DNA from: Eledone cirrhosa
Taxonomy: Eukaryota
Reading direction: 5' to 3'
NCBI GenBank assembly: GCA_964016885.1
Contig: OZ024742.1
Span: 152,830,001-152,894,000 of the forward strand
Length of the DNA stretch: 64,000 nucleotides
Shown: piece after piece, positions 17,651-59,921 of the stretch
Position numbering within the stretch: position 1 is the stretch's first letter
Layout: the number at the start of each line of letters is the position of its first letter
Position numbers and translations under genes: made by a program
Notes under the pieces: generated by a model
Told to the model about the DNA's origin: nothing
What the model saw: the letters and a program-made list of their open reading frames with translations, nothing else
Database searches by the model: none

Positions 17651-19061
17651 TATATATATAGATGCTATATATACATATATTTAAAAAAAATATATATATT
17701 TCTTTTTGTGCGTTAACTTGTATACATATGACGTATAATTATGTATGCATGCATTGCATTAATCTGATGTGTTGAGCGTGTTGAGGCTCTCAGTATTGAG
17801 GATTCATGGATTGTAATGTTAAGCTTATTGGCAGTCTTAGCTGTACATATTTCTAAAATCGATCAATATAGTTGATGAATCCCCATAGAAACAAAAGGGG
17901 ATGGTAAATTACAAGTCGTCCTCGTGATAGACTAAAAAATGCTGAATTCTATATAATGTAGTGTTCAGCAGAAAGCATTCGCAGAAAGTATTACATTAAT
18001 GTATTACTGGCAGAAACAACAAATATGTTACATCAAGCATAAATGTATTCTTTGACACGCATAAAAATTACACACGCATACTCATATATACACTCAGTAA
18101 CACACAATAACACACGCACCTATAAATATATGTATATGATGGACGTCGATTGACGTATAAGGGTTCAACAGTCTTTTCAGTTCATTGTTTATGTTTATGC
18201 CACAAATGGCATGTATATGAATTAAAACCTGAGAAAGCTGGATTCCAATATGTTCAGTTAATTTTGAATTATTACGAATTTCTGTGACCGACTTACGTCA
18301 TCAGTCCATGATATATGACAGTCCGTTACGGCATGAGATGTTGTGAGCATGAAATATTTATTTAAGTAACCATTACAGGGTTCCAGAAATATAAGAACAA
18401 AGAATTGATACAGAGGTGGACGCGCTAGCGATGGCATCACTACGACGGACAGCCTCTATATTCTAACTACTTTTGGTGGATGCAATTAATCTATTTTTAA
18501 GTTTCTCGTAGTCGTAAGAGTAAAAGAAGAACAGAAAAAATTATATATATTTAGTGATGGCTTTATTTTTGCTTTGTATACAATATTTTCAATCCATGGC
18601 TTATTTGTGGTTTTCATATCAACATTCCTAGGCAGTACGGTATAACTGTATAATATATTGAAGAGGGGGAGGATAATGTGTATGGTGTTAAGATGATGTA
18701 GCAACGGCTGATCTTTTCTTTTCGTCAAGATTTCTCTGTTTTAGCATTAACCGACTTTATTTTACAGCGGGACACGTCACATTAAGTGAAATGCGAAAAT
18801 ATTCCAGATCAATATTATAAATATTAAATGGTGTTTTCTTTGCAAGGTTAGATTTAAAGAAAAAAAATCACATATTTCTACCTTGCATTTAAAAGACTGA
18901 AACTTAGCTTCAAGTGAGATATTTAGTATGTGGAAACATGAATATCGGGAATATGTAGACATACACATACGTGTATTCATGTATGTATATATATATATAT
19001 ATATTAATAAAAACAATGAAATAAAAGCAAAGAACAGGTTCCGTATACTAAAAAATAATAA

Positions 19062-19198
19062 TCATTTTACGATCGTTTCTTGGATATAGATGTGTGTGTT
19101 GGTATGTATATCATATTAAAGATCTATGTAAAAAAATATTACAAATTATCAGAGGAGATATACATACCTTCACTTATATATGCCATCTTCAGAAATGA
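19062..19198 (-). ncRNA. Hammerhead with a stem II region of about 106 nt (mirror copy at 20841-20976, +)
   Basis: tcattt CTGAAGA [long hairpin] GAAA CGATCG TA aaatga. Confidence 0.75.
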
Positions 19199-19364
19199 TG
19201 AAGTATGTTTATTGACAGAAAGTATTGGGAACAGGTTTTGAATTGACCAATAGAACAGAGTTAGAGGTCAAGTTCATAGAATAACAGTATTAGAAACTTT
19301 ATGCTAGGAGTGGAGGAAATTAAATTTATGCTTTGAATGAAAAGAATACAATGGGGAAGATAAT

Positions 19365-19546
19365 TGTTTCTACATTTGGCACAAGGCCAGCAAATTTCCC
19401 AGTGCATTACTGGTACTTTATTTTATCGACCCCGTAAGGATGAAAGGCAAAGTCAACCTCGGCGGGATTTGAACTCAGATCGTAAAGGGACGTAACTCTG
19501 CTGGAAAGCATGGCGTCCGACCCTCTACCGATACTGCCAATCCACC
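19365..19546 (-). mobile_element. SINE inserted in the left arm only, 13-bp TSD
   Basis: TGGGGAAGATAAT at 19352-19364 and 19547-19559. The empty site is in the right arm near 20660-20672. Confidence 0.92.
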
Positions 19547-55619: not shown

Positions 55620-55693
55620 GCTGTCTGATGATGTCACGACACTCCCACACAGAACAGTGTGACCAGTGTAGCCATTGAAATATATATCACAGC
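55620..55693 (+). ncRNA. Minimal type I hammerhead in a unique block (about 55130-55820) between (TA)n tracts
   Basis: gctgt CTGATGA [45 nt] GAAA TATATA TC acagc. Confidence 0.78.
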
Positions 55694-57142
55694 ATTATTA
55701 TTAAAGGACTTGAACATCTGAAACAACTTCGCTTTTCCTTATTCGATATTTACTCCGTCACTCCTATGTGGAAAAAGTACGTCGATTGCTTGAATTGAAT
55801 TGCATCAATGTTTACCGTAATAATATATATACATATATATATACACAAATATATATATATATATATATATATATATATATATATATATATATATATATAT
55901 ATATATATATATATATATATATATACATATATTGATATATATATATATATATATATATATAGAGAGAGAAAATTGAGGTTGGTAATATATTGATATATAT
56001 ATATATATATATATATATATATATATATATATATATATATATATATACATATTTATTAAAATTAGTTTAAGCAAAGAATCGATGCTTTCACCCTTAACTC
56101 GATCTTCTTAAACTAACAAAGTCAATCTGTGAACGCGGAAGTGAATATTTCAAAAAGCGTTGCAACAGGAGGAAGAAAGGAAGACGATACTTTGGTTCGT
56201 GGAAACATTACCTGGCAAAGAAAGGGAAAAAACAAATATAATACGTCATTATTTGGTGCGGTGAAAAACAATTACACGCAAAGACAAAAGCAGGTCCATG
56301 GTATAAAAGAAGTCGTAGACTGATATTCTATTACATATATATATATATATATTTATACATATTTATATATATATATATATATATATATATTCATATATAT
56401 ATATATATATATATATATATATATATATATATATATTCATATATATATATATATATATATATATATACACATATATATATATATACATATATATATATAT
56501 GCATATATATATATGCATATATACATATACATATATACATATATATATACATATATACATATATATATACATATATATATACATATATACATATGCATAT
56601 ACATATATATATATATACAGATATATATACATATTTATATACATACATATATATATACATATATATATATACATATATATATACATATATATATACATAT
56701 ATATATAGATATATATATATACATATATATATACATATATATATATACATATATATATACATATATATATATATATATACATATATATACATATATATAT
56801 ATATATACATAAATATATATATGCATATATATACATATATAGATATAGATATATATATATATACATATATAGATATAGATATATATATATACATATATAT
56901 ATACATATATATATATATACATATATATATATACATATACATATATATATATATACATATATACATATATATATATATACAAATATATATACATATATAT
57001 ATATATATACATATATATATATATATACATATATATATATACATATATATATATATATACATATATATATACATATATATATATATACATATATATACAT
57101 ATATATATATATATACATATATATATATACATATATATACAT

Positions 57143-59921
57143 GGAAAGTTATATTTAAATTGTTGGGTTACAACTAGTAAATATTTATAACTGATATAAA
57201 AGCACTCGACAAATATTTGGAGTATATTTACAATATTAAATAAATGGAAACTATATTTATAAAACCATATTTATTTCATTATATATATTTCAGGGATATC
57301 ATATTAACAATATGCTATGCCTTCCTCAGACAAAATACAATATAAACAGGTTTATAGATAAATAGATTTGACATACCGTAACAACATCGACTTGTATTTG
57401 AAAAAGTTGAATTGGCAGTGAAAAAATTGTACACAGAGAGAAAGAAAGAGAGAAAGAAAAAAGAAAAGAAAGACAGAAAACGAAGAAAAAGAAGAAAAAG
57501 AAGAAATGCATGGAACAAAATAGAGAGATGGAAAGATAGATAAAGAGAAGAACTTCATGTAAAGAAACAGAGAGAGATATATATATATAGAGATAGATAT
57601 ATATATAGATAACTAGGTAGTGGGACGTCCGTTGAGTAAACGTATCAATGACACATTTATTTATTTATTTATTTATTTAGCTCTAGTATTAATGTAAGGG
57701 AGATATATGGAGAGAAACCAGCTGTTATATAGAGAGAAAAATTTAAAAATAACCAGACATAGGCGAGGCGTAAAAACCCTATGTTTTAATGTATGTATAA
57801 AAACCAGCCACTATTTTGTAAATATCAGTATTCTTGAATGAGACATGTACCCATAATGTGTGAAAAGTAATGATCTCATGTTTAGTTTTTTTTTTAAATT
57901 CATATGTGATAACTACAAACATCTATGTGAATTTACATGATCAACTCTGCAAACCCTAAGGTGACGGAAAACATTCTCATTGTGGTATAAAAATTTAAGT
58001 ATACATATATGTATATATATATACACACAAATATATATAGAGTCAATATTACTACTATTCCTGTCTTTACTCTACAAGATTATCTATCAAGCAGAAATAG
58101 AGAGCAGATTTCAATATACTAATATAAATATATATCAGAAACAAAACTAAAAAATAACAATAATAATAATAATAAAATAGAAAACTAAAAAATATTACGA
58201 AAGAATATTACATATTAAAAATATTACATATTAAAAATATTAAAAATAAAAATATTAGAAAATACTACAATAATAAAAATAAAAATAAAAATAAAAATAA
58301 AAATAAAAATAAAAATAAAAATAAAAATAAAAATAAACCACAAAGATCAACCCTTCAAAATTAATTGACAATATATTGCCAAGTTCATTATAAGCATCAG
58401 AGTCGAAAAACAGATAAAGCCAAAAATTATCTATCAAATCGCATCTAGCAAAGATCATTTCAAAAAGTTTAGGATGCCCATTTGGTCTACATTTTTATTT
58501 AAACATTCTTCATGAAAAATTTAGCTACCCTAAAAGTTGATGCTCCAAATATTTCGAATAAACGTTACACTAGATAAACTTCTATATTAAATATAAGAAC
58601 ACATGTAGACCAAATGGGCATCCTAAACTTTTTGAAATGATCTTTGCTAGATGCGATTTGATAGATAATTTTTGGCTTTATCTGTTTTTCGACTCTGATG
58701 CTTATAATGAACTTGGCAATATATTGTCAATTAATTTTGAAGGGTTGATCTTTGTGGTTTATTTTTATTTTTATTTTTATTTTTATTTTTATTTTTATTT
58801 TTATTTTTATTATTGTAGTATTTTCTAATATTTTTATTTTTAATATTTTTAATATGTAATATTTTTAATATGTAATATTTTTAATATGTAATATTTTTAA
58901 TATGTAATATTTTTAATATGTAATATTCTTTCGTAATATTTTTTAGTTTTCTATTTTATTATTATTATTATTGTTATTTTTTAGTTTTGTTTCTGATATA
59001 TATTTATATTAGTATATTGAAATCTGCTCTCTATTTCTGCTTGATAGATAATCTTGTAGAGTAAAGACAGGAATAGTAGTAATATTGACTCTATATATAT
59101 TTGTGTGTATATATATACACATATATGTATACTTAAATTTTTATACCACAATGAGAATGTTTTCCGTCACCTTAGGGTTTGCAGAGTTGATCATGTAAAT
59201 TCACATAGATGTTTGTAGTTATCACATATGAATTTTAAAAAAAAACTAAACATGAGATCATTACTTTTCACACATTATGGGTACATGTCTCATTCGAGAA
59301 TACTGATATTTACAATATAGTGGCTGGTTTTTATACATACATTAAAACATAGGGTTTTTACGCCTCGCCTATGTCTGGTTATTTTTAAATTTTTCTCTAT
59401 ATATAACAGCTGGTTTCTCTCCAGATATCTCCCTTACATTAATACTAGAGCTAAATAAATAAATAAATAAATAAATGTATCATTGATACGTTTACTCAAC
59501 TGACGTCCCACTACCTAGTTATCTATATATATATCTATCTCTATTTCCTCTCTCTCTTTATATATATATATATATATCTCTGTTTCTTTACATGAAGTTC
59601 TTCTCTTTATCTATCTTTCCATCTCTCTATTTTGTTCCATGCATTTCTTCTTTTTCTTCTTTTTCTTCGTTTTCTGTCTTTCTTTCCTTTTTTCTTTCTC
59701 TCTTTCCTTCTCTCTGTGTACAATTTTTTCACTGCCAATTCAACTTTTTCAAATACAAGTCGATGTTGTTACGGTATGTCAAATCTATTTATCTATAAAA
59801 CTGTTTATATTGTATTTTGTCTGAGGAAGGCATAGCATATTGTTAATATGATATCCCTGAAATATATATAATGAAATAAATATGGTTTTATAAATATAGT
59901 TTCCATTTATTTAATATTGTA
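57143..59921. mobile_element. PLE family A non-coding palindrome: arms 57229-58491 / 58603-59921, spacer about 110 nt, 86-nt left tail
   Basis: Near-identical mirrored arms homologous to the 3' UTR at 35480-36916. HHRs at 57267-57343 (-) and 59807-59883 (+). Confidence 0.93.

Follow-up and report, generated by a model that had tools for sequence, protein, structure and literature searches.

We analysed a 64,000-nucleotide (nt) stretch of the Eledone cirrhosa genome (contig OZ024742.1 of assembly GCA_964016885.1, positions 152,830,001 to 152,894,000 of the forward strand; hereafter the window, numbered from its first letter), which has a GC content of approximately 30% and is rich in (TA)n arrays. 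Penelope-like elements (PLEs) and short units with hammerhead ribozyme motifs occur in it mostly as palindromes, in which two 5'-truncated copies are joined head-to-head. Where the outer ends recur between copies, one arm stops at a short site and the other continues through a tail to a long site. These palindromes are real and well above chance. Priming of cDNA synthesis by both ends of the cut target, from two sites of the element RNA, is the best model for such long/short insertions, and we consider it probable.

Palindromic insertions and their outer ends

Self-comparison of the window with simple repeats masked, together with arm-by-arm alignment, recovered inverted pairs at all 11 sites where a first-pass annotation had described two 5'-truncated head-to-head copies, with arms approximately 90-99.5% alike. 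A twelfth palindrome, absent from that list, was found at 49460-50384, and the palindromic form thus concerns 12 of the 16 insertions in the window. The sense direction is backed by hammerhead cores or open reading frame (ORF) remnants in 10 of the 11 listed palindromes. Left arms have their cores on the minus strand and right arms on the plus strand, and the ORF remnants agree, indicating that the 3' ends point outward as had been proposed; for family B (19003), the evidence consists of the first half of a hammerhead core.

The fixed long and short outer ends that had also been claimed stand in 7 of the 11 listed palindromes, whose one-sided extension is proven element sequence, being present in at least two copies. 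The extensions of the palindromes at 42246 (family H, 74 nt, close to the 73 nt first estimated), 39528 (167 nt), 21269 (312 nt) and 30855 (~30 nt) are single-copy in the window and might instead belong to the host. All seven palindromes with recurring ends pair a long end with a short one, a non-random association within the window (chance 0.004-0.008, assuming a long-end share of 0.5-0.65 and independent events).

In family A, the nine outer ends map without exception to two sites, with a spacing of 88-91 nt counted from the last unambiguous base. After the bases shared with TA, this amounts to the 86-88 nt reported initially for its four palindromes, each of which has one long and one short end, and TA runs adjoin the nine outer ends. 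The palindrome at 30328..30780 has a short left end, a right tail at 30690-30780 and a 9-nt duplication at its centre, like that of the 30855 palindrome. The second (33224..37003) combines a short left arm (33224-34224) with a right arm carrying an ORF remnant and a tail at 36915-37003, which corrects the earlier placing of its long end to 37003. The third (45629..51622) has a long left end, a short right arm and an inner partial copy (47624-47812) that stops within the tail, ~25 nt before the long site. In the fourth (57143..59919), an 88-nt tail is found on the left arm, and the short right arm extends 105 nt further 5'. A solo copy on the minus strand (14195..14385) stops at the short site, with (TA)n on both sides. 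Arms are 98.1-99.4% identical inside a palindrome versus 86.5-96.3% between insertions, suggesting one source per event or later homogenisation.

The same layout is found in three other families. The family B palindrome (19003..21176) comprises a short left arm, a near-perfect hairpin at its centre near 19947 and a long right arm with a 140-nt tail (~21036-21176); a short interspersed element (SINE) at ~19364-19546 is a later insertion in its left arm. The two ends, ~140 nt apart as first described, recur in solo relatives, one on the plus strand stopping at the short site (28440..28690) and one on the minus strand stopping at the long site (37321..37640), the latter with an 87-nt tandem duplication. 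Family C, of 466-nt units, forms two palindromes, both with the expected tail of 70 nt. In the first (37773..38767), the left arm consists of 1.25 tandem units with the long end and the right arm has the short end; in the second (41632..42179), the tail is on the left arm and the hammerhead only in the short right arm. The family C tail closes with a 13-bp perfect hairpin (37782-37810) directly before the long site, and the right arm of the 37773 palindrome starts inside this hairpin.

The palindrome at 49460..50384 belongs to family E, with a 316-nt unit in which the two ends are ~67-70 nt apart, and it is inserted in a non-TA target. This target is the right arm of the 45629 palindrome, whose left arm provides an internal empty site: the 14-bp target duplication (49446..49459, plus strand, and 50385-50398) is present as a single copy there. 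As the duplication surrounds the whole insert, both arms stem from one event. At both outer ends, 3-4 nt are shared between target and element.

Proposed priming at both target ends and its alternatives

In the model of two-ended priming, the element endonuclease would nick both target strands in a staggered manner, and each of the free DNA ends would serve as primer for a separate cDNA, starting at one of two fixed positions on the RNA. These cDNAs would then be joined at their 3' ends via short microhomology, a hairpin or a small templated duplication. Both arms would be copied from one shared source template, the short hammerhead units would use the protein of coding elements, and in some events a fold-back step may be added after priming by both ends. 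Overlaps of 5, 2 and 0 nt were found at the three centres computed, including a 5-nt microhomology at 37773. The first-pass annotation had already proposed that both target ends prime from two RNA sites; this part is the best fit to the mutually exclusive arms described below, the 14-bp duplication and the analogy with in vitro data. Its placing of these sites near the RNA 3' end was too narrow, because in the tandem families the RNA extends beyond both of them.

The arms themselves are informative. In the palindromes at 57143, 45629 and 41632, the short-ended arm has 105, ~840 and 60 nt, respectively, of sense 5' sequence absent from the long arm, and the long arm has the tail that is absent from the short one. 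At 45629, the additional sequence includes an ORF (47815-48655) present in the short right arm only. A fourth, weaker case is the palindrome at 21269. These mutually exclusive arms exclude simple fold-back at those sites, since the element sequence must have been available to the two arms separately. Fold-back, in which one cDNA or inserted copy would fold back, copy itself and stop where TA-like bases allow a switch into the flanking (TA)n, requires one arm to be a subset of the other, which is false in these three palindromes and probably at 21269. As a general route it is already contradicted, and we judge it improbable even though TA-like bases follow the family A short site and an inverted duplication is seen in the TA array at 59921-61009 itself (z = 10.6, with none of 200 shuffles as good). 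The clean target duplication of family E in a non-TA target and the solo short-ended copy at 14195 also speak against it.

In vitro, a purified PLE protein of the green anole cut and extended both strands; synthesis began at two internal sites, one on either side of the tail, and the protein is predicted to be a dimer (PMC11167929). The match between these start sites on sense RNA and the genomic ends is a point against a second alternative, in which an antisense transcript would prime itself to give a palindromic intermediate, to be trimmed or resolved by the endonuclease with a tail left on one side. Self-priming was proposed in PMC3846280 and endonuclease resolution, for the tail, in PMC8557442. 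This scenario would account for the hairpin-like centres (19003, 30325) and for coupled inner ends, and it is compatible with mutually exclusive arms, but in family E the 3-4 nt that target and element have in common at each outer end are as expected from priming at both. We regard it as rather unlikely, although as a rival to two-ended priming it stands.

Two independent insertions placed back to back in one TA array are a very improbable origin. Many elements are nested in these arrays, and a TA tract separates the arms at 42246, as this would predict, but the arms of a palindrome resemble each other more than any other copy, most centres are devoid of TA and a single target duplication encloses both family E arms.

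Several observations weigh against two-ended priming, or limit it. Inversion was overstated as the default form: it is common and not obligatory, since four copies in the window (14195, 22350, 28440 and 37321) are without an inverted partner. Eight of the 12 palindromes also fit fold-back and hence do not discriminate. The inner ends are within ~100 nt of each other in 5 of the 12, which is unexpected for two fully independent cDNAs and points to a single RNA whose 5' end was common to both, or to an additional fold-back step. Host-like DNA in these TA arrays is also inverted-duplicated (59921-61009 and 15217-15980), and no insertion intermediate was observed. In vitro, the two strands showed no difference in start site in the sections of PMC11167929 covered, and so the rule of one site per end is left unexplained. 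Sequencing reads from other samples raise further difficulties: about 2000 and 1600 reads exit family A at 36987, where there is a one-base indel and the long end as placed in the window is still 16 nt away, with a mixed continuation (agreement 0.34), so the long end is not cleanly mapped. In addition, short ends make up 32-35% of short plus tail reads versus 50% under strict pairing, a share biased by cut-site pile-ups, the filtering of TA-rich reads, a clip at 36906 (1516 reads in run X8) and tandem copies. At least six strand-change joints of unresolved direction occur among the loose ends listed (24 of 643). A correlation between arm lengths (Spearman 0.84) was discounted, because the lengths were estimates made by hand, with two of them taken as symmetric, and families are a confounding factor.

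These reads come from four of nine listed runs, mapped on one family A arm (36020-37012) and including two raw restriction-site-associated DNA (RAD) runs from other samples with the same species label. In the two RAD runs, 5298 of 34805 and 6005 of 38274 reads exit the element into (TA)n at 36922, which, given the TA-like bases there, corresponds to the family A short site, and the tail read depth is 61-65% of that at the short site. The family A short end is a fixed, (TA)n-flanked end in other samples too. Read support for the insertions covers this end in two other samples; the long end is unclear and none of the reads spans a palindrome. Of the sampled words of 30328-31950, no more than a fraction of 0.09-0.14 is present in runs X1-X3, and the short end is found in three contigs of X1; the best run has 0.63 of these words.

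Such incomplete coverage, with no read across a whole palindrome, is the point in favour of an assembly or chimeric-read artefact, which we nevertheless find scarcely credible. Substitutions and indels distinguish the two arms, as do later insertions that hit one arm and made target duplications of their own; the same ends are found at several loci, and the short one also in raw data from other samples. Two other palindromes have a SINE in only one of their arms, which, like the family E empty site, argues against an assembly artefact. Among metagenome loci (80 of 321 relatives), 17 of the 80 have an inverted repeat of some kind, in short-read contigs of no use for pairing. One public contig carries a Hydra-like relative with a clear head-to-head, hammerhead-bearing copy upstream of its ORF (790-974 and 2821-3005), and another shows an apparent tail-to-tail arrangement at the contig end.

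Returning to two-ended priming, we put forward a broader version more tentatively, with rather less than even confidence. It might be obligate for PLEs, with a protein dimer holding both ends of the staggered cut, one per start site on a single RNA, so that the inverted copy and the one-sided tail would be a single phenomenon. Short hammerhead units would carry only the two-site signal, ride the same machine and enter the genome as long/short palindromes, besides forming rolling-circle tandems.

Elements, ribozyme cores and surroundings

Family A contains a 5'-truncated ORF (34225..35347, plus strand) with a reverse transcriptase (RT) thumb, a CxCX5C linker, a GIY-YIG-like endonuclease and CxxC and CxH motifs. 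Five RT proteins, 674-776 residues long, match the 380-residue remnant over their C-terminal half (E-values of 1e-54 or better). The RT motif YRDD is present in these homologs, and all five have the N-terminal RWK and DKT motifs, or a close form; the window copies of family A are without the N-terminus. A feature search of the ORF named GIY-YIG clusters at scores of 0.96-0.97, and Pfam, NCBIfam and PDB sequence searches with the ORF and its homologs gave no relevant match. Within 34205-35344, besides the linker, CxxC and CxH surround conserved E and N residues, and no CCHH motif or Cys pair is found in the nuclease core. The stop codon is followed by a 3' untranslated region of ~1.6 kb, and the window contains no full-length copy. 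Judging by its motifs and homologs, family A is an endonuclease-bearing (EN+) PLE of Hydra clade type, as the linker, the CxxC/CxH motifs, RWK/DKT in the homologs, the hammerhead and the (TA)n target match the published marks. An Asn-rich insert of ~25 residues distinguishes the family A ORF from its homologs (34560-34660 and 48100-48210).

A putative type I hammerhead motif of family A is found at 36816..36873 on the plus strand, with core, stem II, GAAA, palindromic loop and stem I. All family A arms have a core with GAAA and pairing stems, as assigned by eye from the sequence. The predicted cut is never at either end of an element: it lies ~50 nt upstream of the short site in family A, and 100 nt (E) or more in others. 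At the gathering score, Rfam gave no match in the window, including for the family A hammerhead. At E-value level, among the matches listed (150 of 450), most are microsatellite matches to microRNA models, and two are sub-threshold matches of family C to hammerhead HH9. The family A motif is not the minimum-energy fold, energy folds of seven hammerhead stretches gave no consistent standout (z from +0.7 to -2.1), and the tails have no common fold (z from +0.5 to -2.7). U3:A8 replaces C3:G8 in the cores at 49930, 50246 and 49665 of the 316-nt family and at 39687 in the 39528 family, whose hammerhead also has a long stem II extension. The U3:A8 covariation keeps hammerhead activity.

The term 'non-coding', applied at first to all hammerhead elements other than the coding PLEs, holds for the 466-nt and 316-nt units, which are too short for a PLE ORF; families B and H and the palindromes at 30855 and 39528 could instead derive from coding elements truncated to their ends. 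The 466-nt unit repeats within 37773-38350, and the 316-nt unit is present 2.1 times. By the criterion of a 2026 preprint (bioRxiv 10.64898/2026.07.22.740005), a retrozyme comprises at least two units in a row, all with a complete type I hammerhead. We did not file families C and E among them, because C has one core per arm and E has GAAC for GAAA in its first unit as well as U3:A8, but their sequences suggest that they work like retrozymes. None of the RNA runs contained the stretch searched.

Four palindromes with single-copy extensions complete the set. That of family D (21269..30096) is old, with nested insertions in each arm; its left arm runs past the right end, and its right arm starts in a Hydra-like endonuclease C-terminus (25292-25505, plus strand; hhalign 93%). 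Family G (30824..31446; arms 30854-31125 and 31177-31446) has minimal type I hammerhead cores and a left extension of uncertain origin. The palindrome at 39361..40072 has its core at 39687 on the minus strand, and its left arm reaches further, to (TA)n. In family H (42246..42822), an inverted pair, the extension is on the left. Two further small inverted repeats were found at 9986-10143 and 45039-45338, with 78-nt and 47-nt arms, and with a hammerhead-like core at 45271.

Several other elements were noted in the window. A solo 3' fragment of another PLE (22350-23935), with a CxCX5C linker and nuclease core, lies in a TA tract and contains a SINE. The SINE-like repeat, of ~185 nt, has five copies that are 82-94% alike (1392, 19364, 23240, 24471 and 43363), two of which are present in one palindrome arm only. 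A Tc1/mariner element (16047-17650), with inverted repeats of ~200 nt and a broken transposase (Pfam HTH_SB and HTH_Tnp_Tc3_2), is located at a TA array; it adjoins ~250 nt of inverted-duplicated host-like DNA bounded by TA tracts (15217-15980), in which no hammerhead core was found. Two decayed non-LTR (long terminal repeat) retrotransposons (RVT_1, zf-RVT) are on the minus strand at 1825-5514 and 6157-7900. The degenerate TA array at 59921-61009, by the short end of the 57143 palindrome, is inverted in its variant pattern over ~490 nt per arm and looks as if a free TA end had folded back. As mirror images, the TA arrays flanking this palindrome failed, 39 of 200 shuffles being equally good. 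In 32807-41632, the TA arrays have a recurring interruption, with both orientations mixed within one array.

Comparison with known systems

In L1 twin priming, two target ends prime in one event and an inversion results; one priming site is at the poly(A) tail and the other internal, and the segments barely overlap. Two-ended priming as envisaged here would likewise use two target DNA ends in one event. In contrast, the two presumed start sites here are separated by 67-140 nt, the ends are without poly(A) and, as the first-pass annotation had stated, the arms duplicate the same sequence.

Much of the anatomy is known from EN+ PLEs. Inverted-flanked tandems are the commonest Penelope form (PMC2377424). 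Head-to-head arms with a 31-bp tail on one inverted repeat and target duplications were described together with a proposal of antisense-RNA self-priming (PMC3846280), and a 30-40 bp tail, often at one end only, was ascribed to endonuclease resolution in PMC8557442, which lists the origin of inverted PLE structures as unsolved. The window shares with published EN+ insertions the head-to-head arms, the one-sided tail, a target duplication enclosing the entire unit, partial tandems and palindromic centres, but its tails are 67-140 nt (perhaps up to 312) instead of 30-40 nt, and its units are mostly short stumps (PMC3846280, PMC8557442). The Hydra clade is characterized by the CxCX5C linker, the lack of the CCHH motif, hammerheads and (TA)n insertion (PMC8557442). 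Family A shares with it the linker, a nuclease core devoid of the two-Cys motif, CxxC/CxH near the C-terminus, the hammerhead and (TA)n targets; it differs by its long 3' untranslated regions, known here from truncated copies only. Its Asn-rich insert recalls the N-rich inserts of rotifer Penelope elements (PMC3846280).

The green anole Poseidon element resembles those of the window in its AT-rich targets and in that its two fixed ends are downstream of the hammerhead and bear no relation to the ribozyme cut, but it belongs to another clade and has a 30-40 nt tail (PMC11167929). In the sections covered, that study did not connect the two start sites with head-to-head insertions. No statement of two-ended priming for PLEs was found in the literature searched, a weak negative as subscription reviews of 2005-2006 were outside its scope.

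Retrozymes have been linked to PLEs (PMC7761336; bioRxiv 10.64898/2026.07.22.740005). Animal non-LTR retrozymes are similar to the window units in their short tandem units, type I hammerheads and proposed PLE-based mobilisation. They are described as direct tandem arrays from circular RNA, with no head-to-head form with a one-sided tail in the text examined, and the 316- and 466-nt window units, together with two families with the U3:A8 core, are unlike those described (same two sources).

Thus, head-to-head arms, the one-sided tail, (TA)n targeting and two RT start sites are in print (PMC3846280, PMC8557442, PMC11167929), and the structures themselves are ordinary for the PLE class. Our analysis adds tails of 67-140 nt, the long/short rule in two short hammerhead units, the pairing count, an internal empty site and the exclusion of simple fold-back. 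Strict long/short pairing and mutually exclusive arms connect inversion with the tail, whereas the in vitro work, in the sections covered, explains the tail only (PMC11167929), and the matching footprint in short hammerhead units provides direct sequence evidence on the machinery that moves them.

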